Shown piece after piece: positions 7,187 through 29,032 of a stretch of DNA of 29,032 nt (positions are counted from its first letter, which is position 1; each line of letters begins with the position of its first letter). Origin of the DNA: Atractiella rhizophila. Taxonomy: Eukaryota. The position numbers and the translations under genes were made by a program. Below the pieces are notes generated by a model. The model searched no databases. It worked only from the letters and a program-made list of their open reading frames with translations, and had not been told where the DNA came from. The stretch covers positions 62,001 to 91,032 of the forward strand of contig MU271313.1 in the NCBI GenBank assembly GCA_021432655.1. Reading direction: 5' to 3'.

Positions 7187-10027
7187 TTAAAAAGTTTGTT
7201 CATACCCCTTCCCACTCCTCATCTTCGTCCGTTTATTCACCTTAAAATGTTTCTTTCCATCTTTTCCGGTCTGCACTCCTCCGCCTCCTCCAACCAACGC
7301 AGGATGATTGACTCTACTGAATCCCTCTTTTCCCAGCGCCGCATTCGCTGCCACACCCTTCACCATCGGCCTCGCACTCAAGCTTTTGAATTCCTCCACG
7401 GTCTCCCCATCCCTTTCAAGGTCAATGAAGGTATCCGCTCCTTTCCGCACTCTCGTCGTCGGAGCTTTCTTATTGAACTTGGTCAGCGTTTTCAGCCTCT
7501 CAAGATCCCGATTCGGTGCGTTAAACTCGTCCACTTCTGTTCCGGGTGGAGGATGACAGTACAGTAGCTTGGCATTCACATAGTCTTTGAGTATTTGACG
7601 CGCCGAACGATGCTCATCCGGATTTCCTTGTCCTGACGTGAAGTATCCTCTCGCCACTGCGGATATATCAGCCTCCACTCTCTAGAACTACTCCGTCGAT
7701 AGCTATCTGGAGTGGCCACTCACCTGCGAAAGCTTCAAGCAATTCGTCAGCCGCTAATTCCCCCACTTCTCCCAAACTCAGACCATAGACACCTCCAAGG
7801 ACCTTTCTCCCGATTCTTTTAGCAACAAGGTCTACTGGAGCCCTCGCCTCTCTCATTTGATCAATGGGTAAGACGCCATCGCAAATGAGATCTGCGGTCG
7901 TCTTCGCGAACTGCGGAAAGACGAGACCTGGACAGTCGCACAGAACAAAATCAGGCAGGTGGTGGGTCTGGAAGTGTTTCGTTTTTCCCGGGGTAGAGGA
8001 GACGGATACTCTTTGCGTTTGCGAGGTTTGAGGAGCGAGAGCGAGGAGCAAAGAGTTGAGCGTGGAAGATTTCCCGACGTTTGGGTACCCAACAAGGCCT
8101 ATAGTTGGCTTCCAAGTGGTGCTGGTAGCCGTGGAAGGAGGAGACGAAGCTGATGGTGGAGAAGAGGGAGAGGGACAGTTTGCGACGAACAGTGTGGCGA
8201 GCTCGTGCGCTGTGAGCACGCGAGATCGGTCGTTCGATTGTGAAGCTGATGCCTTGGATTCCTCCGCTGGAGCTGGAGCGGGCTCTCCCTCTGGTTTAGC
8301 GGCAACCTCGTCGTCAGTAGCCTCCTCATCTTCACTCTCGTCGTCTTCCTCCTCGCCTTCCATGAGGTCCTCGTCCTCTTCTTCGAAAGTCGCCATATTT
8401 GCCGAATAAAAGGCCACTTCCACTCCTTGACCGTCAAAATATTCGAGCCACTTCTCCCTATTCACCATCCAGCATTATCAGCAAATTTCACCTATGCTGC
8501 AACTGAATCGTGGGATAACCTACCTTTGTTCTGCTGTCAGCAAGTCACTCTTATTGATCAACAACAAGTTTCTCTTCTTTCCCCTTCCTTCCACTCCCTC
8601 TGCTTCTCCATCCTTGCCCCCTAGTTCATCAACATACCTCTCCAAATCCTTACATCTAAACACCGCCGGATTCCTCGCATCCACAATCTGAACCACGACC
8701 TCCGCTCTCTCAATCGTCCTCCAAAGCTGTCTCCAGACCTCCAAATTCCTCTCAAAAGGTGTCAACAACAACTGATCCTCCCCTTCTCCCTGTTCCAACT
8801 CCGCCAATCCTCTCCTCCACTCGAGGAATGACGACCTCTCCAACCGTTCCAATTCGGCGGGAGAAGTGGTCGTGGTCCATTTTGGACGGCGGGGTACCAA
8901 CAATGCGGATTGGTGAGTCCGCATGGCCCGATCGCTGGAACGGGGAAGAGTGGAGGTCGAGGAGGCATCTTCGATGACGTGAGTGTTTTGTTTCGTAGCT
9001 GTGAAGTCGGTAGCGGCTAGGAGAGCGGTGGAGAGGAAGTTGGAGAGTGAGGATTCCTGGGTTATTGAACTATTGGGACGAGATCAGTTCTGGTCGTTAA
9101 CAGGTTTCCGCGCATGGGAAGAACGATGGACAACCGTGGTTCGCGATAGCTTTGTAAAGATATTACGATCATTTGTGCAATGAAGGTTTAATCGAAAGTC
9201 ATTTTGAATCAGCGTGAAATAACTTGTTTGGTGCTCATACGCCAAGAGTCAAACAAGGACAGTCAAAGCATCTGAAGAAAGAAGTTTTCAAAACTTCTTC
9301 TCATGACTCCAGTTGGAAGCTTAACAAAAGCCTCAAAACTGATCTACTTTGATGTTCTTTGGAGTTATGCACAGCATAAAACTATCAGATGGAAGGCCTC
9401 GTTCAAAAAACCTCCTTAGGAATAACAAATAAAGTGGCCCCTTTTGTAATTCTGGACCGCTGGGACTTCAGACAATATTTGATAAAGTTGAAAATTACGC
9501 AAAACAGCCCTGTTGAACGATCAAACGGCAATGTGTCTACTGAATTATGACAAAGGGACTCTTTTGGATGTCAATTGAGATGACTAAAGATGGAAGTAAA
9601 ATCAAGACAAGCTCTCATATATGATATGAGGCGGCACTTCTGCATATGATCAGAGTAGATTATGATGTCAAAGCAGGACTCCAAAATCGAGTCAAGCAAA
9701 TCAGGTCAGAATTGGGATTGGCAAGGAAAAAGGTGAAAGAAAGTCGTACTTTTTCCCATGTGGTAAATCAGTCGTATGCTATCTCAACAGCCAATCCATC
9801 AGTCATAAATTCATAATGTAGGGTGCGAGAGAAAGAGACGGACCAAGGCCCTCTCATACTCTGCTGCCTGGGCTTTCCTTCGATGATTTTGCAACGCCTT
9901 TCCCAGGTGTGAATCTGATTTCTTTGGGGGCTATTTAACACTATGGTCAGAGATCTAGAACACGGTGGCAGACATTCGATGTTGTTCGTATTGAGTCTGA
10001 TTTGTCTGAAAAGTAGAGACATACCAT
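7187..10027 (-). CDS. LSG1: Large-subunit GTPase 1 (circularly permuted YlqF/YawG-family GTPase, 60S maturation)
   Basis: Motifs LTPFERNLEVWRQLWR, VQIVDARNP, G4 INKSD before G1 GYPNVGKSS, VSSTPGKTKHFQT, LCDCPGLVFP, GVLPIDQMR and ARQILKDYVNAKLLYCHPPP. 5' exons found by hand: ATG only (10027-10025), PPKKSDSHLGKALQNH...(9930-9844), HTTDLPHGK (9778-9750), then SITQESSLSNFLSTALLAATDFTA from 9069. Confidence 0.93.
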
Positions 10028-10287
10028 TGGTTAAACTTACTCTTTTGAGCCCCTTTTGTGCTGCTTTCGTGAGTAGTTAATGCGATAAACGCCAGGTATC
10101 CGGTAGTAGTAATCAATGAGTCTGGCGATAAGGCTAGTAATAAAGCGTTGGAGAAATCGATGATTGATAATGGTGGTGAGTTGATCGAAAATTTGGTTGT
10201 CCAAAATGCGTTTGCATTCCCACACTCAGACACACTGGTTCGGCTACAGGAGGATAAACAGACATCACAACCAATAAGAGCATCAGC
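10028..10287. promoter_or_regulatory. Probable bidirectional promoter region between LSG1 and SEC3
   Basis: The divergent start codons at 10027 (-) and 10288 (+) are only 260 nt apart. No specific motif was identified. Confidence 0.55.
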
Positions 10288-13200
10288 ATGGCCTCTCCTT
10301 CGCTGATAGCCCCAACAATAATCACATCTCTCTTCCCACCGTACGGCTCCATCAGAGACGAATCCTACATCTCCCACCTAAAAATCCTCGAAGAAGGTCC
10401 AGCGCCGTCCCTCCCACCGACACTGCCCAATCCGCTCAACCCCAACGCTCCCCCTCCCGCACCTTCCAACGATGCCAAACGGCGATTCATAGTGCTTTCC
10501 GTCTCGAGCAGCGGGAAATGTAAACTGCACAAGACGAAGCAGAACCCGAATGGCTCGTTCTCGGTTGGGAAGACGTGGGGACTGGAAGAGTTGAGGAGCG
10601 TGGAGGTCCTGAGCGAGTCGGCGTTCTTGATTGGGTTGGGGAGCAAGAGTTATACGTGGAAGACGAATGAGAGGAATAGGAGGGAGCAGCAGGACTTTTT
10701 GGTCATTTTGGTCAGGGCTCAGAGACAGATGATGGGAAAGGCGGCGACGGTGAAGACGAAGGGATTCAGGGTGGATGAGGGAAAGGGAGGTGAGTGTTTC
10801 TGATTCTGCTGTTTCGGGGTGTTGCTGTGATTGGTGCGATTCTATTCATGGTTATGATTGTATTATTGCCATGGATTGGATGAAGTAGTTCATGCGCAAG
10901 TTCGTAATCAACAGTGGATAGTTGTCTTTGTTCATAAAAGATGAAAGCGAGCTTGGAGATGAGCAAGCAGATGACTGTCCAATCTTCCTTCCTTCATTTA
11001 GCGGGGATGCATGCGTGCAGCTCATCTTCTAATTTCCTTGATTATTTAGTTTAGTTTATTCCCAGTGATGTATGTTGTGATATGACAGACACAGTCTAGA
11101 GCAGGTCACATATCACAAGGAGCAATCGCCCCTGCAATTCCTCTGAGGCATCGTCATCCTCCTTAGCTGCCTTTCAGTCATAACTCGCGCCAGATACATC
11201 AATCTGTGAGAGCTGAATTGACGCAGCTAATGTTATTGTGCCTGCTGTTTCTGAGGAGCTAGAACGAAGCAACTCTCGTGTCCCACTTTCTTGATTAAGA
11301 GAAGTCATAACGTCAGCCAGCCTAATTCGTTTTAGCTCTTCTTCTACCTCTCGTAGTCATCTCACTCCTTGCTGCTCCTTTCCTGATGAACTAACTCTCA
11401 AGAAAGTTTATCGATGTAGCACAAACTGTACTCCTTGCTCTGAGCATCTGTTCTTCTTTGTCCTAGTGAATACGAGGCGCGCAGAGTAATTCCTTAACAT
11501 ATTCCGGTTGAGTTCGGATTTCGTTTGAGCTGATTGCTTCATATTGGAATGATCTCTCAATTGCGTGAAGCAGAGATTCAATTAGTCTCTTGTTGACAGA
11601 TGCCTATGAAAATCTTTACTCTCCTGTAACCTATAGTCCTCTGGAAGGTTGTGCTAAGGTACACTACCTGCAGGCGCTCCAGTCTACGAAATCCCTCGTT
11701 TCCCTTCCCCAGGCCCTCCAAGATCACCAGCACCACCTCGCTCGCCCCTACCTCCAAGCATCGGTGGCCCATCTGCGCCTCCTTCATCCCTACGTCCCGG
11801 CGCACCTAACGGGCCTTCCTCTCCTATGCCATCTCCTTCTCCGATGCGGCCATCGCTACCACGAGATCCTCGTCTTGACGGTCCTCCAACCCTGTCGACT
11901 TCTTCGCTCCCACCATCCTCCGTTTCCTCTCTCCGATCTCCCGTCCCATCCTCATCTGGCGGACCTCCTCAAATTCCACCACTGAGAGTCTCCGGAGCGC
12001 CACCTTCGAACGCTCCAACGCCACGCCTGAACGATGTCCGCCGTGGTCGTTCGGGAAGCGTTACCAGCACCGGGAGCGGAGGACGCCCTTCGATTCGTAC
12101 GGATGTCGGTCTGCCACCATCGATTCCTGCTCAGTTCGATCGTCCTGGAACAGCTGGTACAGATGTTAGTGATCGACGGCCCAGCGAGTTAGGGTCTGTG
12201 ACTGGGCGGAGGACTCCGAGCGATATGGGTAGACCGCCTCCGCTTAACACGTCGGTAGGAGGCAGTAGCCTCAGGAACAATGGTGTTGCTTCTCCCTCAC
12301 CTAATGGACCCCGCGGCGAGTCGTCCCCTAAGAGATCATTGCCCCCCAATGGAGTAGCGGGCAGGCGAGAAAGTGACGAGCGCGATCGGGAGCGTCGAGG
12401 CACGCCTCCGCCCCGCCCATCCTTCTCGAACGTGAACGGTTCGCCTAAGGCTAATGGGAAAGAGCGCAGAACGGGACAGTCTTCATTCGATGAGGGCCCT
12501 TCAAAGAAGTCGGAACAGAGCATCCCACCTGCTGCTGTGCAACCCGCTGTCCCATCACAATCAATCACGGCAGGCATTAGAACTATCGCACCAAAGAAGC
12601 AGATGGGAGGGAGGGACGAGCCAGAAGCGGTTGGGAAAAAGAAAGTCCCTGGTGGGATAGAGAAACCTGAGTTGCGGGTAGTGGAAGAAAAGAAGGATAA
12701 AGATGAGGATGTTGAGATAGACGAGGAGAACATCCTTGCAAATGTCGAGGAGATGCTGGAAGGGTTTGAGTGGAGGAATGCTGGTAGTAGCAAGGGGAAA
12801 GGAGGTGCCGGATCGAGCGACCAGATTGAACGACGGCTTCTTAGAGAACTAAAAGCTCTGGAGGAGGTTTGTACTTCCTGTTAGAACGACATGATGATTG
12901 TCCTGATGAACCCTTCAGGCAAGTATCTTTGCGATCATTGAGAGCGACGAACGGGTGGCGGCGGTGGTCAAGGACCTCGATGAAGCTATCGCGGAACTTG
13001 ACAGAATGGACCAGATGATTTCTTTGTATAAGACTCAGCTTTTGGTGCGTTCCTCTGAGATGCACATTGAGTACCTGCTGAAAGCAAATGAACAGACAAT
13101 GTCAGACGATATCAATCACATTGAAGGTCAAAATCGCGGTTTGCAAGTCCAGACTTCCAACCAGCGAGCTCTTGTCGCTGAACTTGATCGCCTTCTGGTA

Positions 13201-15476
13201 CGTCAACCCCTTTGCGTGTGAAGTGTGAACCTTTGCTTATGAGCGCTGTAGTCAACTGTGAATATACCAGCCGAAGACCTAACCATCTTGAAGAAGGAAC
13301 CTATGGAGAGTACACAGAGCATCCAAAGGTTGGAAGGTTCAGCAGCGACGCTGTACAAAGCTTTGTTGTCGACGAGAGACATGGGTGAGTTTCCCGCCAT
13401 CTTGGCCTTCCGATAATTGATGGATTATTAGGTGTCGGCGACATGGTTGTTGCCAATGAACGCCTTGCTGAATACCGTGAAAGGGCTTCACAATTCTGTG
13501 TGAGGGTACTCGAGTTCCTGGCGGTGATGTTTAAGTTCCAGGTCCGAGTTCACTACCTTCAGCTGCCTTTCTGATCCATCCTGTAGATCGACCTGATGGA
13601 GAAAGATTCGTCGCGAGCAATAGACAAGAACAAGCCTTCCTTGCCGACTCACGCCAAGTTGGAAGAGTACCTGGGTCGCTATTGTGGGCTTATGCTTTTC
13701 GTGAAGGAGGTAGATTATCAACGCTTCCAACAGATATGTTCTGTAAGCTGCCTTCCTCGACTCGCAGGGTAGTGTGCTAACATCCTTGCACAGGCTTATT
13801 ATACCGCTGCAAGTGATCTCCATCGGAAAGAGATGACGGAGCTCTTTGCAGCTTACAGAAAGCTATCGCGCAAACCAACTGAGGATGAGCAAGAAGCTAG
13901 TAGGCAACTCTTTCTTCCAGCAGAACTGCGCTCAGTTGGGTCACGCAGGCTTCACTTATCAATCTGTCAATGCACCAACTGTACTTAACAAATCTGCAGC
14001 TGGGAAGAAGACGAAGATTGGCGATGTTAACAAAGGCGGAATGCCAGCTCATCAGGTCAGAATGCGCCACCCGCCCTTTAGCTGATGCTCACAGTTCATG
14101 ATATCCAGACCTTCAGCAAGCTAGTCGAAGTGATTGTGAAACAAATAGAGACAGAGCAAGCCTTCATAGCCGATTTCTTGCACACCTTTTCCTCCCCTCT
14201 GGACCCGTTGATGACCTTTGCCGACTACATGGACCTCGAATCGTACTTTAAGCAAGGAGCCGCTGCTGCTATGACAGGACAGCAGGCTCGGTTTAAGGAT
14301 ATTCGACAGTCGCTTGACATGATATTTGGGTTCATGGTCACCGAATTCACTACTTGGATCGACTCCGAAATCGCTAAAGACGGATTGTATGGTCTATCTG
14401 ATTTGTCGCTTCGGTTGCTGATTGCTGGGGATAGCCAAATCGTCGGTATTCTCGCCGTCTTGGATCGAGCAGCCGCGCGTGCGGAATCACGGAGGAATGA
14501 CTTCCTTGCTCGAGTGATGCAGAAACAACATCAGAAAGCCAGCGGATTGTTGGAGAAAATCTGCAAAGAGCAGATTAAAGCTATCGAACAGACGAAGCTT
14601 ACTCTCAAGAAGCGGAAAGGAGTTGTTCCCTTTATGCGCGTCTTCCCAGTGCGTCTTTCGTCCGAAACTGGGTCGCATCCAGGTGCTTATGCTAGTTGAT
14701 GTTAGCGCTTTGTGGACCGCATAGAATCCCAAGTCCTCCCATCGGATGATAGGCTTCCGACGCGCAAACTTGTCAATGATGTTTACGACAGAATCGTCTC
14801 ATCGATGCTGGAGAGTTTGCAGCAGATGGCCAAGATGGATGGGGATGCTGGAGCTGGAGAGGATAGCAAAGATCAACTGAACTACCATGTCATCCTCATC
14901 GGTGCGTTTTGTCTACATCCCTCTCATCCTGGCTGAACTCCACCGCCAGAAAACATGCATCACTTTCTCACGACGATTGGTCCAAAGAAGATTGCTCCCC
15001 TCAAACCTTCTCTTGATCGTGCTCGCGATTTGTATGACCAGAATCTCAACCTGTACATCAAGGTTGTCCTTCGCCGTCCCCTCTCTCGTCTTCTCGACTT
15101 CTTCTCTGGGATGGAGCAACTACTTCGGACCACACCAGCAAACGAAGTCTCGTTACATGGAGCATATACCAAATCATCACTCAAAAAGACTATCTCCTCC
15201 TTCGACTACAAAGACTTGAAGAAAGGGATGGAAGCACTCTCAAAGCGGATCGACAAGCATTTTGGGGACATTAGCAATCCTTCAGCTGAAAATTCAGAAG
15301 CTGTCCGGACCGTTTGGAAAGCTTGTGAAGAAGAAATGACAAGGTTGATAAAGGAGTGGGCCGCTTTGATCGTCAGGTGCTTCCCTGATGACAAGGTAGC
15401 ATTCGATTTTGGAGTTGAGGAAGTCCAGAGTGTGTTCAAGAAGAATGTACCTCAGTCTGCAGGTTCAATGTCGTAG
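10288..15476 (+). CDS. SEC3: Exocyst complex component Sec3
   Basis: N-terminal PIP2-binding PH-like domain (YISHLKILEE...RFIVLSVSSSGKCKLHKTKQNPNGSFSVGKTWGLEEL), long Pro/Ser/Arg linker, coiled coil with MSDDINHIEGQNRGLQVQTSNQRAL, and Sec3 C-terminal region (QIKAIEQTKLTLKKRKGVVPFMRVFP, KDQLNYHVILI|ENMHHF, ALSKRIDKHF). First intron 10790-11673. Confidence 0.92.
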
Positions 15477-15666
15477 TTCGTGTTGCCAATGTATTTTGGG
15501 ATGGTTCAATCTGTCAACATTCACACGTGTTCATCCCTCATTACCGTCGAGAACATCACAGAAAACGACTGCTAATAATTTCTTCTTCCTCTAATTTATG
15601 CACACCCAAACCCGAACAGCAAAACAGCAGCCTAAAAGTCCACGTCTGCAACTGCAATAATCGTCA

Positions 15667-16993
15667 TCAAGACTTCTTTCTTCTCTCTCGTAGCTCGGTC
15701 TTAGTTCCTTGTCGCCCAACTGGAGCAGACTGGATAGCTTTCTTGCTCTTTGATTCCTTCGATTGACGCTCCACTTCCTCTTCTTCATCCTCCTCACTGT
15801 GAAGACAGAGGTTAGTCGGTGCCATGATACGAAAGAGATCCGGAGTAAGCAATAAAGGGAGACGTACTCTTCATCGTCGCTCCTCACATCCTCTAATCCC
15901 TCTCCAGTAATTGCCTTTTTCACTGCGACGACCAAAAAGTAAAGCCATCCCAGCAAGAGAACTTGAAGGAATATGAGAAGTCCAGAAAAGATCCTGTGGA
16001 CAGAGGAGTTGAAGAAATAGGCCCTGGCGGGATCCCATTCGTAAGGAATCCTTTGTTTTGCTTCGATTACTGCGGAATACAGAAGGCGTCCATATAGGAC
16101 GTGTCGGGTCAAGACCCAGGAAACAGCGAAGATGGCGAAGAAGGCGTCGCATAGGGTTCTCAGATTGGCATATCGGAAGAGTTTGGCTGCCTGTTCACCC
16201 ATGTATCGATATTCATGATACAACAAGACGGAGAGGGGCGGAGAAAACGAACCGGAAGAAAAATATCGCACAGGTCCATGCATACCAGTATAGCATTCCC
16301 GACAGGGGTGATGTTACAGCAGTAAGAGAGAGAAAGAAGGGTGATCGTTATGATGTGATGGAGAAGCATGTGTGGATAGTCCTTTCGCTTCTTCTCCATG
16401 TTCAGTACAATGAGCTGTTGGATCCAGAAGCCTGTTTGAACGAGATAGTACCACTTCTGCAGCCACGGAAGTTTGTCGTAGGGATACCGGTCCCAATATT
16501 CGCGGGTGTTAAAGTTTTTCCAGGGAGACGTCTGCATAATGTACTAATCCGTTCCAGCGCCGACAACAGCGCGCTTCAGCCTTCTGTCTGGTAGGTAGCA
16601 AGCAAGGCAGAAAAACTCACCAGTCCCAAAGACCAGCTGCAGACGGGATATACTAAAATCCACCCCTGCTCCGCAAAGCGAAGTTGTTTTCCTGGTGCTT
16701 GAATCCCACAAAATCGTGCCAGTGGAGTAAACAGGAGTCTCATGACGAGCTCTCGGAGAATAGTGAAGTAGAGGACCCAAGCGAAGACAAAAGGAATATC
16801 GGACTAGATTGCATCCAAACCCACATCATAAGCACATCAGCACAGGTAACTTAGACACTTCCATCTCCCTTAACTCTTCATTAAGCAATAAGGAAGAACG
16901 TACAATGCTTTGGCCATACAACCCTGTCGAAGGGTCTCTGCCCTGAAGGTGAATAAGAGATTCAAAATGCATCGTCTTTGAATTCCCTTCTGT
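15667..16993 (-). CDS. LAG1: Ceramide synthase, TLC/Lag1p-motif protein (LAG1/LAC1 family); 5' end uncertain
   Basis: Spliced reading GLYGQSI|SDIPFVFAWVLYFTILRE...QLRFAEQGW...KWYYLVQTGFWIQQL...RKDYPHMLLHHIITITLLSLSY...GNAILVCMDLCDIFLP|AAKLFRY...WVLTRH...EDVRSDDE, with an acidic then basic tail. Further upstream exons (possibly from an ATG near 17505) could not be resolved. Confidence 0.88.
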
Positions 16994-17639: not shown

Positions 17640-19122
17640 TTACACATCCAAACACTGTGAGAAATAGTCGCCTATCCCCATGAATGCATCAGTTTCTTCT
17701 TCTGCGATGGGAGTGAGGAAGCTCACCAGAGGCGACACACGTCCATCCATCTTGGCAGCAGGTTGTCCCTAACCAACCTTTGCCTCCGCACTGTCCATAA
17801 TTCGCACTACACTGCAGCTTCCCGACGTTGGGGACACAGGTTTTGAGAAGGCTCGTTCCTTCGCAATGGTAGCCGTTATGACACGTTGTTGGACCGCTAT
17901 AAAGCAGTCCACCGCATTGAAGGTAGGCACCAACCGTCGGCGTCGGAGCAGAAGCTGCGGTGGTTTTGGTGGCAGTCGCGGTGGCAGTAGTTCGCGCCGA
18001 AGTAGTAAATTGTGCGTTCTCCACTTTCACTACTGCTTCCTTATTGTAGGTGACTTGTCCCTCTGAAACCAATTTCAGCACCTGGAATTGAGTAAGAAGG
18101 AAGCTACATACCACATTCGCACTGACAATTCTGGCACACTGGCGGTTGGCCGCCTTCTCCCCAATGCTGATTGTAATCGGAGCTCTAAAAAGCACACGTT
18201 CATTCATCAATTCATGGGACAGAAGGAAGACGAACCTGGACCCAAGTAACACAATAGCTGCCTCCGAAGTAGTTGTATGCACCTGAGAAATCGTAGCAGG
18301 ACTTTCCAATGTATTTGCCACTCGGTTGGTTGTTCAGAGATTCGAAGTGGGTGCCAAATGAACTGTTCACATCGCCCAATAAACACATCAGTAACTATCC
18401 TGGCTAAGGATGGAATGGAGCTCACGCTGGAGTCCAACCTGAATTAGACTTGTAGGTTTGTCCACATTTGTATTGACTGCAAGGGATGGCCTGTCCACCC
18501 CATGGCATTAGCGTGTTCCTGAAAGAGGGAGGAAGCACACACCTGATAATTCACATGCCCACCATCCGAGAACGTCTTGCCAGGGGGAAGAGTTAATCCA
18601 TTGATGCCATTGGAGCAAGTGTTCCCAATGGTATACGGAGTGCAGCCGTCTGATCCCTACAGTCACACATAGGTAAGAAGTGGATCGATAAGGCGAGGAG
18701 AACGGTATACTGACACCACCAGAGTTGCAGGTTGTACCAGTCCACGTACCAGGGCACGTTGCGGCAGGGGGCGGAGAGGTCGTGGTCATGGATGGTTTAC
18801 CACGCTTCCATTCCTGATGATATTGACCTTGTCTCGCGTGGCCATTGCGAGGAGAATACTGATTTCTCCTTATCCTCTCCTCACCAACTGTCAAGCGCTT
18901 CCGTCAACTCACTTTTCGCTAAAATGAAGACAAAGTCATACGGTTGTTCGAATGAATACCTGTGTCAACCTCCTTTCCTGAATCATCGAACCCCCATGCG
19001 TCTTTCTCGTTCAAGAAGGACCCAATGTTTGCACCGGCAAGTTGACGCTCGTTTTTTGGGAGTGCTGCTTCCGCAAGGAGAGCAGCGGATGAGAGAATTA
19101 TCGCGGAAAGAGAGACAAGCAT
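17640..19122 (-). CDS. Secreted protein (~366 aa, 8 exons): signal peptide, propeptide, uncharacterised Cys-rich domain, Thr-rich linker, two CBM1 modules (complete copy)
   Basis: Exons 19122-18942, 18887-18715, 18656-18543, 18490-18426, 18362-18236, 18184-18112, 18062-17727 and 17671-17640. All seven introns are GT-AG, 49-63 nt and phase-compatible (1101 nt total). N-terminus MLVSLSAIILSSAALLAEA. CBM1 patterns YLQCGGLLYSGPTTCHNGYHC and [36 protein letters not shown]. Confidence 0.85.
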
Positions 19123-19901
19123 TATTGGCGATAAATACAGAGACGAAGGAAGCTGACAAACCAAAGGAATAGAGATTCTTCAACAAGACGTGCGGATTTT
19201 ATAGACCACAGCTATTGGGTCAGATTTCGCCCGTGAACTGAGTAACGACTTGTATAGTCAATAATTAACACAGAACCAGCGAATAACATACCTTCTTCCC
19301 ACACGCATCTCACGATTACGTGCTGAGCACTGAGGGCATCAAGAACCTGGATTGGACCGGTAGAACTGCTAAGCATGAACTGTATCGAAGCAAGGCTGGC
19401 CTTTCCAGCGCAAGCACGCGATTGACGGGGCTGCTAAGAAGGTATGCGAACTGCCGAGACGCCAAATTACGGGTCGCTTAGGCACCAGAAACGGCTGGAG
19501 GAAGAGAAGCTGTCGTCATTCCGAGTTCGGTTTCTTTTGCTTCTATGCGGAAACTCGGGCATCAACACCTCAAAGGAATGCCTCAGCGTTTGAGCCATTG
19601 ATAAAGAGGCAACAGGACCAGTGCTTCCTTTGAATGGAAGGAGTAGAACTCAACAGATATTCATTCAATGTTACAGAAATGGCACCAAGAGACTCGAGAA
19701 AACCAAAGTACTGAAGCATGATCCACTTCGCGAAACGAACGAATGAACTTCTAGTTATTAGGTGTGCTGGGTTACGGTCGCGGCGGAGACATTTGCTCCA
19801 TTGGGCTGGAGTCGGCTCGACATATCATCTGCGAGAGCACGTTCCGTCAACGTCGTCAGACCCTGGTTCTTGGTTTCGGAGAGAATATTTGTGACCTCCT
19901 T
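17725..19901. repeat. Tandem segmental duplication, unit 1 (~2.18 kb)
   Basis: Near-identical to 19903-22078 at an offset of 2176-2178; the ORF track repeats at the same offset. Confidence 0.95.
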
Positions 19902-21298
19902 AACCAGAGGCGACACACGTCCATCCATCTTGGCAGCAGGTTGTCCCTAACCAACCTTTGCCTCCGCACTGTCCATAATTCGCACTACACTGCAGCTTCC
20001 CGACATTGGGGACACAGGTTTTGAGAAGGCTCGTTCCTTCGCAATGGTAGCCGTTATGACACGTTGTTGGACCGCTGTAAAGCAGTCCACCACATTGAAG
20101 GTAGGCACCAACCGTCGGCGTCGGAGCAGAAGCTGCGGTGGTTTTGGTGGCAGTCGCGGTGGCAGTAGTTCGCGCCGAAGTAGTAAATTGTGCGTTGTCC
20201 ACTTTCACTACTGCTTCCTTATTGTAGGTGACTTGTCCCTCTGAAACCAATTTCAGCACCTGGAATTGAGTAAGAAGGAAGCTACATACCACATTCGCAC
20301 TGGCAATTCTGGCACACTGGCGGTTGGCCGCCTTCTCCCCAATGCTGATTGTAATCGGAGCTCTAAAAAGCACACGTTCATTCATCAATTCATGGGACAG
20401 AAGGAAGACGAACCTGGACCCAAGTAACACAATAGCTGCCTCCGAAGTAGTTGTATGCACCTGAGAAATCGTAGCATGACTTTCCAATGTATTTGCCACT
20501 CGGCTGATTGTTCAAAGATTCGAAGTGGGTGCCAAATGAACTGGCTCACATTGCCCAATAAACCCATCAGTAACTATCCTGGCTAAGGATGGAATGAAGC
20601 TCACGCTGGAGTCCAACCTGAATTAGACTTGTAGGTTTGTCCACATTTGTATTGACTGCAAGGAATTGCCTGTCCACTGGCATTAGCGTGTTCCTGAAAG
20701 AGAGCAGGAAGCACACACCTGATAATTCACATGCCCACCATCAGAGAACGTCTTGCCAGGGGGAAGAGTTAATCCATTGATGCCATTGGAGCAAGTGTTC
20801 CCAATGGTATACGGAGTGCAGCCGTCTGATCCCTACAGTCACACATAGGTAAGAAGTGGATCGATAAGGCGAGGAGAACGGTATACTGACACCACCAGAG
20901 TTGCAGGTTGTACCAGTCCACGTACCAGGGCACGTTGCGGCAGGGGGCGGAGAGGTCGTGGTCATGGATGGTTTACCACGCTTCCATTCCTGATGATATT
21001 GACCTTGTCTCGCGTGGCCATTGCGAGGAGAATACTGATTTCTCCTTATCCTCTCCTCACCAACTGTCAAGCGCTTCCGTCAACTCACTTTTCGCTAAAA
21101 TGAAGACAAAGTCATACGGTTGTTCGAATGAATACCTGTGTCAACCTCCTTTCCTGAATCATCGAACCCCCATGCGTCTTTCTCGTTCAAGAAGGACCCA
21201 ATGTTTGCACCGGCAAGTTGACGCTCGTTTTTTGGGAGTGCTGCTTCCGCAAGGAGAGCAGCGGATGAGAGAATTATCGCGGAAAGAGAGACAAGCAT
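19900..21298 (-). CDS. Second copy of the secreted CBM1 protein, C-terminally truncated (lacks the last exon)
   Basis: The first seven exons appear intact with the same splice sites. The duplication junction reads TCT GGT TAA, so the product ends ...WTCVASG* without DYFSQCLDV. It could be expressed or an incipient pseudogene. Confidence 0.7.
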
Positions 21299-22078
21299 TA
21301 TTGGCGATAAATACAGAGACGAAGGAAGCTGACAAACCAAAGGAATAAAGATTCTTCAACAAGACGTGTGGATTTTATAGACCACAGCTATTGGGTCAAA
21401 TTTCGCCCGTGAACTGAGTAATAACTTGTATGGTCAATAATTAACACAGAACCAGCGAATAACATACCTTCTTCCCACACGCATCTCACAATTACGTGCT
21501 GAGCACTGAGGGCATCAAGAACCTGGATTGGATCGGTAGAACTGCTAAGCATGAACTGTATCGAAGCAAGACTGGCCTTTCCAGCGCAAGCACGCGATTG
21601 ACGGGGCTGCTAAGAAGGTATGCGAACTGCCGAGACGCCAAATTACGGGTCGCTTAGGCACCAGAAACGGCTGGAGGAAGAGAAGCTGTCGTCATTCCGA
21701 GTTCGGTTTCTTTGCTTCTATGCGGAAACTCGGGCATCAACGAGCTCAAAGGAATGGCCTCAACGTTTGAGCCATTGATAAAGAGGCAACAGAACCGGTG
21801 CTTCCTTTGGACAGCAAGATTAGAAGTCAACAGATATTCATTCAATGTTACAGAAATTGCACCAAGAGACTCGAGAAAACCAAAGTACTGAAGCATGATC
21901 CACTTCGCGAACGAACGAAATGAATTTCTAGTTATCAGATGTGCTGGGTTACGGTGGCGACGGAGACATTTGCTCCATTGGGCTGGAGGCGGCTCAACAT
22001 ATCATCTGCGAGAGCACGTTCCGTCAACGTCGTCAGACCCTGGTTCTTGGTTTCGGAGAGAATATTTGTGACCTCCTT
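19903..22078. repeat. Tandem segmental duplication, unit 2
   Basis: Begins accagagg (as at 17725) and ends gtgacctcctt (as at 19901). Confidence 0.95.
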
Positions 22079-24830
22079 GTTGAAATCGTCGTAGGAGGGA
22101 GCATTCAAGTTCTTTTCTTCTCGGGGTCAGAAGTCATGAACGAACTTGGCGGAAGTAAGTCTCAGAGAAAGATGGATGGATGCTGATAGCGTACGACCAC
22201 GACCAGTTTTTGTTGAGTGAATATTGCATTGCGTAGTACGTATACGCTGCAGCTCCGCAAGGTCTGATGGGAGCGCGTGAGGAGATGACTGGTTCTTTTT
22301 GCAGGCTGAGGAGCGTCATGATGCTCTTCAGATGGCAGTAGAATTCCTCATCCCAAGTCGCGGAGCTCACGGAACCTTCTCATCGCGTCCATCCGGAGAG
22401 ATAACTTCTATGAGCTTTCAGCTAACATCATATTTCTTATCCACTCACAACCTGCGAACGCCCCTGATGAAAGGATAGATAAAATTGTTTCTGCCCTGAG
22501 GAATACGTGGATAATGACACTGAGCACTCTCTAGCGTGTAGCTACCAACGAACGCGATCCAAGATGCCAGTGCATGGTGTTACAACAATATAAGATCCAT
22601 GGTATGAATCGAAGAGGAGAGGGGAGGTTGAAACGCTCGAAGAATTAAGTCGTTATATCCAAGCATTGTGAAAGCAGTCGCCTGTCCCTTCAGCCAATCG
22701 ACCCTCCTTGTTTGGAATGATGAAAACTCGCCGGAAGCGACGCATGTCCATCCTTCTTGACACAGGTTGTCCCCATCCAATACCTATCCCCCATTGTCCG
22801 TAATTCGCACTACACTGCAGGCTTCCGACATTGGGTAAACAGGTTTTGAGAAGGTTGTGCGCTCGCAGTGATAGCCGTTATGGGGAGTGAACCCTATCGT
22901 ATCTGAAACAGGACGCAAATCCGCTGCATAATGGTTGTCACGTCCTTGTCCTAGTAATGATCGACTCTGTAGATCGTCTCCCGCAGAGAGTTGAAGGATA
23001 CTTCCTTAGCAAGGCCAGGTAAGGAAGGCTCTGATCTCCCTCCGGTGAGTTAACCATCAGAACTTCGGGCTTTTGCTCGTTACGCAAACGTGCAATGCAG
23101 GAAACCGAGTTAATGACCAGAAGTCTAGAAAGGTTAGAGAAGATTTGATGCGTCGAGTTTAACAAGATCTTGACGACGGTCAGAAAAACCTAGCTGGATG
23201 CGGTGTCGCGATGTCAGGTATTTTGACCTGTGACCCTACAAAGTAAGGCGTGAGCAAGGAATACCGCAGTTCTATCATTTGGAACTGCTGAATGTAAGGG
23301 AGATTGAGAGATCCACGAGGACATCGGGAGCACGCTCAATCCTTGAAAGCCCTAGTCAAGATCACATCGTAAACATGTCTTTAGCCACTTCCTCGACCCT
23401 CAACACCCAACGCTCTCGCTACTAAGCAGAACGTGAAGGTTTGTCCACATAGAAGCCTCATTTAACAATGACTGAAGACATAGTTCCTGAGCTCTCCTGT
23501 CATGGAAATAAGGATATTCAACAGGCAGCAATTATGGTGGCCTTTGTACAATCTAGATGCAATCCAGAAACAGCTCTGATGACCCCCCAAAGTGCGATAC
23601 AGTTCTCGCTGCTCCTTTAAGGGTTGTTGGATCTTTCTGCTCGAACTCCAATGATAGATGACATGAAGACAGGCGACGCAAAACCTCCAGTATTCAAGCT
23701 ACAAGCTACTGGCAAGAGCCTAAAGAGGTAATCTCCGACTCTGTCCAAACTCGGGCAAACTCTTGCGACCTCCTCGTTGGCCCATCTGAACGTAAAATCG
23801 TCTCGAAAGCGACAACTTGAACACACTCAGGATGGATTCAAGTTCTGAAGTGCGGCCAGCAAAAGGGCTGAATGGCTTACAAACCTTGGAGGAAGAGATG
23901 GAGCGAGAAGAGTTCGTGTGGAGTACGGGATTTGGGGGATTGGATAAATGCTTACATGGAGGATGGAGGCGAGGTCGAGTGATAAACATTATTGGAGACA
24001 GGGGAGTAGGCGCATCGGTATGTTCTGTTCTTTGCTTTACACCTCCTTGTGCTTGTACTGCCTGTGTGGCTCTTTTCGAACATGAAGGATGCCTTTACAG
24101 CTTTGCCAATACAGCTGCATGGGACCTCCAGTCTTGGTCCTTCAGGCTGTTAACGCATTAATATCAAGGCGAAACTCTTATGTTTGCTGCCCTCCGAGTC
24201 TCTTTCCATCGTGGAGTCGCTATAGCGCCAGCCGGGGAAGTAGTCCTGTCTCTCATCGGAGCAGAGGCTCCGGTTTGTGAGGCCCGAAAGTGGCTCGTCA
24301 CGTTACGCTCACTTCGATTCAACTTCAACTTCATTGGAGCAGAGCAAAGGTTCAATGCCGGATGACGTCCCTCCAGCCTCTTGTTCCTGTCTCTTCTCTT
24401 TATGCGTTTTGAGCGGTCCTGAAATACATTTTCGATCAATGCCGTCTTCAATACACGCCTTATGATTGATGACGGTCCAGTTAGTGCTGTCCTGCGTCCT
24501 CCAATCTCTCATCTCTTCACAAACTTTCAAGGCCTTCTACGTTGGCCCATCTTCTTCTTTCCCCGCCAGTCTCTGCTTCGATATTTTACAACGGAGATTT
24601 CCTGTATCCTTTCAGCCTTCCCCGACGCCAGACGACGAAGCAATCTATAATTTTGCTGCCAGAGTCCTCGATCGAGTAGAAGTCGCAGGGTGGGATGCTC
24701 GAGTAGTCCTTCAGGAGAAGCAAGATATTCACTGGGTTCTGGTCGATGTCGATGCCAAAGAAGTGAACTTACCGGAGCTCGTCGAGTTCATCCTCATGTG
24801 TAGACGAAAAGGAGTAATCACCTTCGTGCG
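21830..24830. repeat. Second segmental repeat, copy 1 (matches 26060-29032)
   Basis: Colinear with 26060-29032 at an offset of about 4200-4250. True ends are hidden by the gap and the window edge. Confidence 0.93.
22653..22882 (-). pseudogene. Degenerate 3' fragment of the CBM1 gene
   Basis: Reads HNGYHCE..KTCLPNVGSLQCSANYGQ followed by frameshifts. It retains remnants of the last intron (donor now GCGAGT) and of the last exon (GCGACTGCTTTCACAATGCTTGGAT vs GCGACTATTTCTCACAGTGTTTGGAT). No upstream exons are present. Confidence 0.8.
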
Positions 24831-25092
24831 GTTTCTCCTCACCGCTCACGTTTCATCGATAATCATAATCGCAGCTCCTATCCCCGGCCCTCCCTCAGCT
24901 GGTAGACCTTGATATCCACCTAAAGGTGCAAGGTCTGAAAGCAACCATATCGGTGAGTTTCTCTTTCAGCAACTCCTACCCGAGGGAAGCTCAGTCAAGT
25001 CCGGTTGCTTACAGCTTCAGCGCAATCGGGAAGGCAGGGATGGTTCATTCAACGCTTCCTGGGTCTGCCGCCCTCCTCCTGACTTTTCCTAA
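23832..25092 (+). CDS. Divergent RecA/RAD51-fold protein (RAD51-paralogue-like, ~228 aa) with degenerate Walker A
   Basis: Exons 23832-24017, 24481-24825, 24875-24952 and 25015-25092, all joined by phase-0 GT-AG introns. WSTGFGGLDKCLHGGWRRGRVINIIGDRGVGAS matches the RAD51/RadA pattern STGxxxLDxxLxGG..GxxGxGKS; WVLVD is a Walker-B-like motif. Confidence 0.72.
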
Positions 25093-25357: not shown

Positions 25358-26059
25358 NNNNNNNNNNNNNNNNNNNNNNNNNNNNNNNNNNNNNNNNNNN
25401 NNNNNNNNNNNNNNNNNNNNNNNNNNNNNNNNNNNNNNNNNNNNNNNNNNNNNNNNNNNNNNNNNNNNNNNNNNNNNNNNNNNNNNNNNNNNNNNNNNNN
25501 NNNNNNNNNNNNNNNNNNNNNNNNNNNNNNNNNNNNNNNNNNNNNNNNNNNNNNNNNNNNNNNNNNNNNNNNNNNNNNNNNNNNNNNNNNNNNNNNNNNN
25601 NNNNNNNNNNNNNNNNNNNNNNNNNNNNNNNNNNNNNNNNNNNNNNNNNNNNNNNNNNNNNNNNNNNNNNNNNNNNNNNNNNNNNNNNNNNNNNNNNNNN
25701 NNNNNNNNNNNNNNNNNNNNNNNNNNNNNNNNNNNNNNNNNNNNNNNNNNNNNNNNNNNNNNNNNNNNNNNNNNNNNNNNNNNNNNNNNNNNNNNNNNNN
25801 NNNNNNNNNNNNNNNNNNNNNNNNNNNNNNNNNNNNNNNNNNNNNNNNNNNNNNNNNNNNNNNNNNNNNNNNNNNNNNNNNNNNNNNNNNNNNNNNNNNN
25901 NNNNNNNNNNNNNNNNNNNNNNNNNNNNNNNNNNNNNNNNNNNNNNNNNNNNNNNNNNNNNNNNNNNNNNNNNNNNNNNNNNNNNNNNNNNNNNNNNNNN
26001 NNNNNNNNNNNNNNNNNNNNNNNNNNNNNNNNNNNNNNNNNNNNNNNNNNNNNNNNNNN
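25358..26059. other. Assembly gap (702 N)
   Basis: Run of n characters. ORFs crossing it are artefacts. Confidence 1.
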
Positions 26060-26164
26060 ACAGATATTCATTCAATGTTACAGAAATTGCACCAAGAGAC
26101 TCGAGAAAACCAAAGTACTGAAGCATGATCCACTTCGCGAACGAACGAAATGAACTTCTAGTTA

Positions 26165-26599
26165 TCAGATGTGCTGGGTTACGGTCGCGGCGGAGACATT
26201 TGCTCCATTGGGCTGGAGTCGGCTCGACATATCATCTGCGAGAGCACGTTCCGTCAACGTCGTCAGACCCTGGTTCTTGGTTTCGGAGAGAATATTTGTG
26301 ACCTCCTTGTTGAAATCGTCGTAGGAGGGAGCATTCAAGTTCTTTTCTTCTTGGGGCCAGAAGTCATGAACGAACTTTGCGGAAGTAAGTCTCAGAGAAA
26401 GATGGATGGATGCTGATAGCGTACGACCACGACCAGTTTTGTTGAGTGAATATTGCGTTGCGTCGTACGTATACGCTGCAGCTCCGCAAGGTCTGATGGG
26501 AGCGCGTGAGGAGGTGACTGGTTCTTTTTGCAGGCTGAGGAGCGGCATGATGCTCTTCAGATGGCAGTAGAATTCCTCATCCCAAGTCGCGGAGCTCAC
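26165..26599 (-). pseudogene. Possible fragment of an unknown gene
   Basis: 144-codon open frame with protein-like composition (FVHDFWPQEEKNLNAPSYDDFNKEVTNILSETK). The copy at ~21935-22370 has a 1-nt indel and the copy at ~19760-19901 is cut by the duplication junction. No recognisable domain. Confidence 0.3.
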
Positions 26600-26894
26600 G
26601 GAACCTTCTCATCGCGTCCATCCGGAGAGAACTGACTGATAACTTCTATGAGCTTTCAGCTAACATCATATTTCTTATCCACTCACAACCTGCGAACGCC
26701 CCTGATGAAAGGAAAGATAAAATTGTTTCTGCCCTGAGGAATACGTGGATAATGACACTGAGCACTCTCTAGCTACACTACCAACGAACGCGATCCAAGA
26801 TGCCAGTACATAATGAAGGCGTTACAACAATATAAGATCCATGGTATGAATGCAAGAGGAGAGGAGAGGTTGAAACGCTCGAAGAATTAAGTCG

Positions 26895-27128
26895 TTATAT
26901 CCAAGCATTGTGAAAACAGTCGCCTGTCGCTTCAGCCAATCGACCCCTCCTTCTCGTTTGGAATGATGAAAACTCGCCGGAAGCGACGCATGTCCTCCGT
27001 CTTGACAACAGGTTGTCCCCATCCAATACTTATCCCCCATTGGCCGTAATTCGCACTACACTGCAGGTTTCCGACATTGGGTAAACAGGTTTTGAGAAGG
27101 TTGTGCGCTCGCAGTGATAGCCGTTATG
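26895..27128 (-). pseudogene. Second degenerate 3' fragment of the CBM1 gene
   Basis: Homologous to 22653-22882. It retains WMGTTCCQDG but carries partly different indels. Confidence 0.8.
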
Positions 27129-28070
27129 GGGAGTGAACCCTATCGTATCTGAAACAGGACGCAAATCCGCTGCATAATGGTTGTCACGTCCTTGTCCTAG
27201 TAATGATCGACTCTGTAGATCGTCTCCCGCAGAGAGTTGAAGGATACTTCCTTAGCAAGGCCAGGTAAGGAAGGCTCTGATCTCCCTCCGGTGAGTTAAC
27301 CATCAGAACTTCGGGCTTTTGCTCGTTACGCAAACGTGCAATGCAGGAAACCGAGTTAATGACCAGAAGTCTAGAAAGGTTAGAGAAGATTTGATGCGTC
27401 GAGTTTAACAAGATCTTGACGACGGTCAGAAAAACCTAGCTGGATGCGGTGTCGCGATGTCAGGTATTTTGACCTGTGACCCTACAAAGTAAGGCGTGAG
27501 CAAGGAATACCGCAGTTCTATCATTTGGAACTGCTGAATGTAAGGGAGATTGAGAGATCCACGAGGACATCGGGAGCACGCTCAATCCTTGAAAGCCCTA
27601 GTCAAGATCACATCGTAAACATGTCTTTAGCCACTTCCTCGACCCTCAACACCCAACGCTCTCGCTACTAAGCAGAACGTGAAGGTTTGTCCACATAGAA
27701 GCCTCATTTAACAATGACTGAAGACATAGTTCCTGAGCTCTCCTGTCATGGAAATAAGGATATTCAACAGGCAGCAATTATGGTGGCCTTTGTACAATCT
27801 AGATGCAATCCAGAAACAGCTCTGATGACCCCCCAAAGTGCGATACAGTTCTCGCTGCTCCTTTAAGGGTTGTTGGATCTTTCTGCTCGAACTCCAATGA
27901 TAGATGACATGAAGACAGGCGACGCAAAACCTCCAGTATTCAAGCTACAAGCTACTGGTAAGAGCCTAAAGAGGAATCTCCGACTCTGTCCAAACTCGGG
28001 CAAACTCTTGAGACCTCCTCGTTGGCCCATCTGAACGTAAAATCGTCTCGAAAGCGACAACACACTCAGG

Positions 28071-29032
28071 ATGGATTCAAGTTCTGAAGTGCGGCCAGCA
28101 AAAGGACTGAATGGCTTACAAACTTTGGAGGAAGAGATGGAGCGAGAAGAGTTCGTGTGGAGTACGGGATTTGGGGGATTGGATAAATGCTTACATGGAG
28201 GATGGAGGCGAGGTCGAGTGATAAACATTATTGGAGACAGGGGAGTAGGCGCATCGGTATGTTCTGTTCTTTGCTTTACACCCCCTTGTGCTTGTACTGC
28301 CCGTGTAGCTCTTTTCGGACATGGAGGGTGCCTTGACCTCCAGTCTTGGTCCTTCAGGCTGTTAAAGCATTAATATTAAGGCGAATTGCTATCCTTCGAG
28401 TCTCTTTCCATTGTGCAGTCGCTATAGCCCCAGTCGGGGAAGTAGTCCTGTCCCTCATCGGAGCAGTTTGTGAGGCCTGAAAGTAGCTCGGCACGTTACG
28501 CTCACTTCGATTCTACTTCAACTTCTTCGGACCTGAGCAAAGGTTCAGTGCCGGATGACGTTCCTCCAACCTCTTGTTCCTGTGTCTTCTCTTTATGCGT
28601 TTTGAGCGGTCCTAAATTCATTTTCGCTCTACGCCGTCTTCAATACACGCTAAACGCAGCCTTATGATTAATGACGGTCCAGTTAGTTCTGTCCTTCGTT
28701 CTCCAATCTCTCATCACTTCACAAACGTTCAAAGCCTTCTACGTTGGCCCATCTTCATCTTTCCCTGCCAGTCTCTGCTTCGATATTCTACAGAGGCGAT
28801 TTCCTTTGTCCTCTCAACCTTCGCCGACGCCTGACGACGAAGCAATCTATAATTTTGCTGCCAGAGTCCTCGATCGAGTAGAAGTCGCTGGGTGGGATGC
28901 TCGAGTAGTCCTTCAGGAGAAGCAAGATATTCACTGGGTTCTGGTCGATGTCGATGCCAAAGAAGTGAACTTACCGGAGCTCGTCGAGTTCATCCTCATG
29001 TGTAGACGAAAAGGAGTAATCACCTTCGTGCG
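28071..29032 (+). CDS. Second copy of the RecA/RAD51-fold gene (runs off the window end)
   Basis: Exon 1 (28071-28256) encodes the same protein sequence. Intron 28257-28682. Exon 2 from 28683 is open: LVLSFVLQSLITSQTFKAFYVG...GVITF. Confidence 0.7.

Follow-up and report, generated by a model that had tools for sequence, protein, structure and literature searches.

A spliced CBM1 protein of Atractiella rhizophila carries a small Ig-like domain shared with sortase-anchored proteins of actinobacteria and phages

We analysed a window of 29,032 nucleotides from contig MU271313.1 of Atractiella rhizophila (positions 62,001 to 91,032) and found on its minus strand a gene of eight exons (17640..19122), whose predicted secreted product of 366 residues joins an unnamed domain to two carbohydrate-binding modules of family 1 (CBM1). 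The domain is common to a family of proteins that in actinobacteria and phages carry sortase anchors. We tentatively read it as a non-catalytic, lectin- or CBM-like glycan-binding tip, and the fungal protein as a two-handed adhesin of the CBEL kind, a reading that we prefer without giving it the greater part of the probability.

The gene, its product and its second copy

Spliced by coordinates, the gene comprises exons at 19122-18942, 18887-18715, 18656-18543, 18490-18426, 18362-18236, 18184-18112, 18062-17727 and 17671-17640 (minus strand). Its seven introns are all GT-AG and measure 49-63 nt, and the 366 codons run without an internal stop. A database query with exon 5 alone recovered P0001, an A. 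rhizophila "carbohydrate-binding module family 1 protein" identical to the product at 365 of 366 residues, the sole change being E259D. RNA contigs were examined from four of the 24 listed runs (X1, X4, X5 and X13). All seven introns are skipped in the contigs of X1 and of X4, both of which we counted as RNA by guess; six of seven are skipped in the soil metatranscriptome X5, in which intron 6 is not bridged, and likewise in the root metatranscriptome X13, in which intron 4 is not bridged. Intron 1 appears in these contigs in its 54-nt form (18888-18941); a 72-nt alternative would also keep the frame and is absent from them. An artefact or a chance open reading frame is ruled out by the match to P0001, the open spliced frame and the intron-skipping contigs, and this is a genuine spliced gene. 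A preliminary description of this DNA, made from the letters alone, had proposed the eight exons and called the gene hidden: its exon model agrees with the open frame and with the junctions used in RNA, all seven of which are covered, and the epithet fails, as the public annotation already holds the gene as P0001.

The protein begins with a putative signal peptide (residues 1 to about 20; 19063..19122), whose hydrophobic stretch reaches an 11-residue mean hydropathy of 2.4 from residue 7 and whose cleavage site is presumed. A propeptide follows and closes with K88-R89 (18802..18807), a candidate Kex2-type dibasic processing site; of 13 further fungal members checked, 11 show the pattern W-x-[KQN]-R at the propeptide end and one more has a near form of it. 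The conserved core of the unnamed domain, G119-C237, is encoded by exons 3-6 (18134..18656). Behind the domain come a Thr/Ala-rich linker with 11 Thr in 28 residues (17929..18009), a first CBM1 (17824..17928) and a second one divided by intron 7 (17649..17802; PF00734 at residues 333-359, protein E 2e-13). In P0001, PF00734 scores 50.3 bits over two stretches, against a gathering cut-off of 20.6. By sequence reading, the aromatic triad of the cellulose face is complete in the second module, and the first is degenerate, its C-terminal aromatic residues being absent. The putative signal peptide, KR-ended propeptide, Thr-rich linker and middle domain split over five exons of the preliminary description are all present (residues 104-244, the 141 residues that it quoted, extend across exons 2-6), and its two CBM1s are there too, if only one of them intact. 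The same 141 residues hold 12 Cys, 3 His and 3 Glu, so the count behind its "12-Cys domain" was right. As a family trait, however, it does not stand: only C215 (245 of 258 aligned domains) and C237 (211 of 258) are family-wide, and these two are the top covarying pair. To judge from the alignment, the Cys richness is mostly specific to Atractiella.

The gene lies in a tandem repeat of 2.18 kb (17725-19901 and 19903-22078), whose units are about 98% alike, with 45 differences in 2171 aligned bases, and whose breakpoint falls exactly at the border of exon 7 and intron 7. The second copy (19903..21298, minus strand), 2.18 kb upstream of the first, is truncated at its 3′ end: exons 1-7 are open and differ from copy 1 by 11 synonymous changes and one replacement, exon 8 is missing with a stop right after exon 7, and the loss truncates the intact CBM1. 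An X1 contig joins copy-2 letters at five sites with exon 8, and the copy 1 gene and its paralog are each represented in the database by two near-identical proteins; the two copies may therefore be alleles, set in a row by recombination or assembly. Further along the window, a second duplication (21830-24912 and 26060-29032), with a spacing of 4.2 kb, 90-99% likeness and an N gap at about 25359-26059 between its halves, looks like two haplotypes scaffolded in tandem. Remnants of CBM1 exons at 22700-22900 and 26940-27150 (minus strand), with frameshifts and stops and no middle domain nearby, are traces of earlier duplications of the copy 1 gene. Between 5200 and 16543 the window holds housekeeping genes and no CAZyme cluster: a RabGAP-TBC gene (5200-6340, plus), an MMR_HSR1 GTPase (7671-8474, minus), exocyst Sec3 (10258-15473, plus) and a TLC-domain gene (15594-16543, minus).

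An unnamed domain of bacteria, phages and fungi

No catalytic family matched P0001 in Pfam or NCBIfam at E 0.1. Of 71 domain rows, none matched NCBIfam, and against Pfam they returned two single weak, unrelated rows. PHROG holds no family for the middle domain, the plasmid search had no match, and sequence searches of the PDB, including a profile, gave only rows at E 0.33-0.68. AlphaFold2 models the Oerskovia domain as a small beta-sandwich (pLDDT 91, pTM 0.83) and residues 121-240 of P0001 with the same elements (block pLDDT 92-97); the core measures about 120 residues in P0001 and about 105 in bacteria. These models confidently place the fold in the class of small Ig/FN3-like sandwiches. Foldseek found no PDB match at E 0.001, and the likeness in the fold search was generic for FN3 and Ig domains and at noise level, with a top Z of 5.5 (interferon-gamma receptor) for the bacterial model and 4.4 for the fungal one; the rows from GH64 and GH76 proteins align to accessory Ig-like domains of those proteins. 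In BFVD, the one strong match is an unnamed viral protein of 734 residues (48% identity), that is, a family member. For the bacterial domain, the ESM Atlas offered only weak Big_13-type models and unnamed clusters (0.76-0.80); for the fungal one it had no usable match. The absence of a fold match does not imply a new fold. The results agree with the preliminary description, which recognised no GH, CE, PL, LPMO or expansin motif here: Pfam and fold searches gave no confident full-length match to a characterised one. In the literature, where subscription journals mostly lay outside the search, we found no description of the domain; CBM1 is reported in Rhodotorula endophytes, and the accessible part of that article does not mention the middle domain (PMC6476726). 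A CBM1 with an accessory domain is a known kind of protein, and within the sources searched it is the domain family and its tie to actinobacterial and phage surface proteins that appear to be undescribed.

Searching 1.84 billion representatives with a profile built from 71 domains of bacteria and viruses gave 324 proteins (clusters at 50% identity) at E 0.001, and the best 150 of these were listed. Of the 76 loci in GTDB, 75 are titled as Actinomycetota and most come from Cellulomonas, Isoptericola, Oerskovia, Cellulosimicrobium and Promicromonospora; IMG/VR has 14 loci, and five Microbacterium phages in GenBank carry the domain. It is present in 36 of 121 genomes around Cellulomonas (Cellulomonadaceae; six of the 36 by weak matches only), in 3 of 151 Microbacteriaceae around Agrococcus, and in 1 of 201 genomes of a phylum sample, namely the centre genome. 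Among 163 non-fungal proteins, the domain starts within 70 residues of the N-terminus in 160, after a signal peptide and before a Pro/Thr stalk, and the chain ends with an LxxTG-type motif in 131 and a hydrophobic tail in 135; bacterial mature chains start near G-G-S-D. By motif, 205 of 260 domain-bearing rows have the sortase-anchor layout, and PF00746 exceeds its cut-off in two scanned members and falls below it in others. The domain is mainly a surface module of bacteria and phages. None of 59 longer non-fungal members carries a CBM, GH, CE or PL family of Pfam. Gene neighbours are not conserved and do not form sugar-use loci; the largest common neighbour cluster counts seven loci, and a P-type ATPase cluster, found at five Oerskovia loci only, is the one recurrence of metal-transport genes. 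On phage contigs, the domain gene stands among anti-repressor, recombination or recombinase, methylase, helicase and HNH genes, that is, in the early or replication region, and none of 48 phage neighbours scanned had a structural family as its best match.

Several members stand apart from this picture. The phage protein Big4 gp260 (751 residues; L001:3665-5920) and P0091 have an extra Excalibur calcium-binding domain near the anchor, and one genome (G045; loci L105 and L109) has the domain three times, in two near-identical copies and a divergent one. A match on a contig titled Saccharibacteria MAG (L006) adjoins a Mu Gam-like gene and may be phage or misbinned. More distant sortase-anchored proteins of Cellulomonadaceae and Microbacteriaceae make up several subfamilies (L094, L098, L099, L102 and L108; L095-L097 and L104; L101, L103 and L100), in which the strand motifs recur and the residues of the pocket are altered. 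Judged by their motifs, they would form, with the domain family, an unnamed superfamily.

On the fungal side, word-based searches of limited sensitivity and length range gave 17 clusters and no other fungal group: two Atractiella paralogs, proteins of seven Rhodotorula and six Rhodosporidiobolus species, and two unnamed metagenome proteins. An unspliced fragment, P0019, adds one further fungal row. PF00734 accompanies the domain in all 17 clusters, with up to seven CBM1s per protein. In the yeasts the domain is C-terminal, behind two to seven CBM1s, whereas in Atractiella it precedes them, which means that the link to CBM1 outlived a rearrangement. P0013 is labelled "cellobiohydrolase II" or "proteophosphoglycan ppg4" and P0187 "putative cellulose 1,4-beta-cellobiosidase", yet CBM1 is the only Pfam family in them, and they have neither GH6 nor GH7.

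P0001 is 65% identical to Oerskovia-type proteins and another fungal member up to 76%; the mean identity is 67% within the fungi and 49% within the non-fungal rows. High identity together with a narrow distribution in either kingdom would be difficult to account for otherwise and points to horizontal transfer between kingdoms. An insert of 15 residues occurs in most fungal members and also in Agrococcus jejuensis and at four Lacisediminihabitans-type loci. Trees were built from subsets of 117, 61 and 46 of the more than 238 distinct domains, selected according to the origin of the locus and to how closely they resemble the fungal profile, over 112-124 columns. The fungal domains form one branch (support 99/95 in one tree, 100/99 in another). 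Oerskovia is their sister in a quick tree (SH-aLRT 86), but a careful tree leaves the sister open within a 100/99 group, and AU tests rejected neither fungi outside the Oerskovia/Cellulomonas group (p 0.59) nor, when the distant paralogs served as outgroup, fungi outside all core bacterial rows (p 0.63); each constrained tree had a slightly higher score than the unconstrained one. The trees thus show neither direction nor donor. We favour a direction from bacterium to fungus, since the greater diversity is bacterial and so are the distant paralogs.

Conserved residues and possible functions

Conservation was counted in an alignment of 258 domains, which are partly redundant (effective number 186). 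Near-invariant are S120, D121, P125, Y126, H152, N154, H183, G197, C215, W218, Q220, H227, G229, E230, G231 and Q233. In the strand motif H152-V-N154 (18549..18557), His is kept in 241 rows and Asn in 257, and the 17 substitutes of H152 are Asp (14) or Glu (3) only; H183 (18347..18349) is kept in 254, W218 and Q220 of the strand motif W218-V-Q220 (18236..18244) in 256 and 253, and H227, E230 and Q233 of the loop H227-x-G-E230-G-G-Q233 (18146..18166) in 255, 255 and 254. The position of E185 is Glu in 169 rows and Asp in 68. The bacterial consensus at the H152 strand is H-V-N-x-R/K; at position 156, bacteria have R or K (195 of 246) and fungi Q (11 of 12 rows), and at position 226 bacteria have E (224 of 246) and fungi Q or P (12 of 12). 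The distant paralogs in Cellulomonadaceae mostly keep N154, H183, W218, Q220 and H227 and have lost E230 and often H152. The covarying pairs 151-184, 155-180 and 156-179 put H152 opposite H183 on neighbouring strands, the pairs 156-215, 156-217 and 158-214 set strand 214-221 on the other side, and the 225-233 loop covaries with V216 and the N-terminal G117 and G119. From this geometry and the secondary structure we infer that H152, N154, H183, W218, Q220, H227 and E230 lie on one face. Three His and two Glu had been put forward earlier as a possible metal or catalytic site: all five (H152, H183, E185, H227 and E230) are conserved across kingdoms and they probably cluster on a shared face, with H152 opposite H183, and the idea holds to that extent and not as far as catalysis.

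A stalked tip domain above a sortase anchor is the usual layout of sortase-anchored adhesins. In Micrococcales and phages, the domain would be exported, raised on its Pro/Thr stalk and fixed to the wall by sortase, so that the pocket is displayed. An ancestor of Atractiella and Sporidiobolales would have taken it up, probably from an actinobacterium; in fungi it would have gained introns, and CBM1 modules would have replaced the sortase anchor. The fungal protein would be secreted and probably trimmed at KR, and would grip cellulose with one to seven CBM1s. Its pocket, beneath the two terminal loops on one face of the sheet, would be offered to another glycan, for example one in the wall of the fungus itself or a sugar of the plant matrix, so that the protein would act as a CBEL-like adhesin with two hands for roots and leaves. 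We conjecture that the ligand is a sugar that the walls of actinobacteria and of red yeasts have in common with the plant matrix, such as rhamnose, fucose, galactose or mannose, which are suggested by the compositions of these walls; it would explain why each of the three groups uses the domain, with phages masking receptors among these uses. We favour a binding module on account of the bacterial tip layout, the Ig-like fold, the core of Trp, Asn, Gln and two His, the phage context and the absence of CAZyme families as partners. The most deeply conserved set, Trp with amides and His, would be typical of sugar binding, the phage gene context would suit a protein that binds or masks a host surface, and up to seven CBM1s are more than enzymes usually need. 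There is also evidence against binding. At 49% mean identity, the domain holds eleven polar or aromatic residues nearly invariant within a length of about 105, more than most CBMs keep, and such conservation looks like that of an active or metal site; the domain is enriched in the cellulolytic Cellulomonas family; the likeness to CBM56 falls with the fungal model; and 89% of two-domain CBM1 proteins of fungi carry a catalytic GH domain, according to the accessible part of PMC3532174.

The same conservation would also suit a small new enzyme of metal or acid-base type (esterase, deacetylase, lyase or oxidase), with H152, H183, H227 and E230 as its site, aimed by CBM1 at plant walls and held at the surface in actinobacteria, and we regard this as doubtful but worth keeping, because the residues are conserved above the level of most CBMs, H152 gives way only to Asp or Glu, which could still ligate metal, and the CBM1 partners of fungi are mostly catalytic. 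The five conserved residues, the cross-strand pair of H152 and H183 with the H227-E230 loop coupled to the same sheet, the constant CBM1 of fungal members, the enrichment in Cellulomonadaceae and the transcripts in a root metatranscriptome all fit such an enzyme. Against it, about 105 residues are few for a CAZyme catalytic domain, the distant paralogs lack E230 and H152, the bacterial E226 and R/K156 are changed in fungi, and bacteria have neither a CBM fusion nor a sugar-use neighbourhood; no enzyme fold stands among the VIA or Foldseek rows, although this absence is weak evidence, and the early or replication region of phages is a poor fit for a plant-wall enzyme. The new plant-wall-active family of the preliminary description thus retains its novelty and its CBM1 partners, and gave no sign of catalysis or wall activity. 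Its boldest form, in which the domain founds a class of very small (about 105 residues), metal-dependent, polysaccharide-active enzymes on an Ig-like sandwich, born on Cellulomonas-type surfaces, spread by phages, captured once by Pucciniomycotina and aimed at plant walls by CBM1, we consider unlikely; if so, it would be the true activity behind the "cellobiohydrolase" labels in Rhodotorula genomes.

X325/Bim1-type copper proteins are surface-placed metal binders, and on their model the domain might capture or detoxify Cu, Zn, Mn or Ni, or remove superoxide, at the cell or cellulose surface with no action on polysaccharides. Three conserved His with Glu or Asp on one inferred face would serve this, and a role at the host surface would benefit bacteria, phage-infected cells and fungi alike; still, we think it improbable, given the lack of recurring metal-transport neighbours beyond the Oerskovia loci, a mature chain with no N-terminal His, an invariant Trp and Gln/Asn left unexplained, and several CBM1s that would be unusual on such a protein. 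Least credible, and very improbable, is a non-hydrolytic loosening of cellulose as by expansin, swollenin or loosenin. A CBM1 with a small non-GH domain is the layout of swollenin. Expansins, too, moved between kingdoms (10.1101/637728, in its accessible part). Nevertheless, Pfam gave no DPBB or expansin match, in accordance with the preliminary description, the middle domain is modelled as an Ig-like sandwich, bacterial members are fixed to their own wall, and phage members exist. A thioester or Thr-Gln ester adhesin, an idea drawn from the invariant Ser, His, Glu and Gln, was discarded: Pfam has no such match, and C215 and C237 covary in the manner of a disulfide pair.

Whichever reading is right, the domain corrects the "cellobiohydrolase" annotations in Rhodotorula. 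An adhesin would give a concrete candidate for the attachment of red yeasts and Atractiella to plants, and an enzyme would be a new CAZyme class. Following unknown domains attached to CBM1 has led to new plant-wall proteins before. This one is small, foldable and expressed in roots and soil, has an ortholog in the tractable yeast Rhodotorula toruloides, and ties together three sharers of plant litter and roots, namely Cellulomonas-type bacteria, phages and Pucciniomycotina fungi.

Comparison with known systems

Unlike the LPMO and X325 families (AA9-AA17), P0001 has no His as first residue either after the signal peptide or after K88-R89, and the earlier exclusion of an LPMO is upheld at both candidate mature starts. 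The galectin site reads H-x-N-x-R ... W-x-x-E, and only the H-x-N-x-R/K strand of the domain is similar to it; galectins were absent both from the Pfam scans and from the 50 fold rows that were listed. CBM56, a beta-1,3-glucan-binding module, is likewise a small Ig-like sandwich and gave three of the top eight rows with the bacterial model (5h9y, Z 5.1, rmsd 3.0, 73 aligned; 6a6c, Z 4.9; 5t7a, Z 4.7), but the identity is 5-8%, the Z scores do not rise above noise and are equalled by those of FN3 receptors, and they drop to 3.7-3.9 with the fungal model. CBEL of Phytophthora, in which CBM1 is joined to a non-catalytic PAN/Apple lectin with a role in adhesion (PMC3532174, in its accessible part), resembles P0001 in secretion, which for P0001 is predicted, and in combining two CBM1s with a small non-GH domain; P0001 has no PAN/Apple match in Pfam, and the sequence relation is limited to CBM1.

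The closest relatives are those that share the domain itself. Sortase-anchored proteins of Oerskovia, Cellulomonas, Isoptericola, Cellulosimicrobium and Agrococcus have it with the same invariant residues (up to 65% identity to P0001), as do the LxxTG-anchored Microbacterium phage proteins Big4 gp260, Zooman gp245, A3Wally gp278 and Magritte gp249. These homologs, uncharacterised and without a family name, differ from P0001 in their single exon, in a Pro/Thr stalk and sortase anchor in place of CBM1, in having 2 Cys instead of 12, and in R/K156 and E226 where fungi have Q. The multi-CBM1 proteins of Rhodotorula and Rhodosporidiobolus share with P0001 the domain (54-66% identity), the CBM1 and the W-x-K-R-type propeptide end, and differ from it in carrying the domain at the C-terminus rather than the N-terminus.
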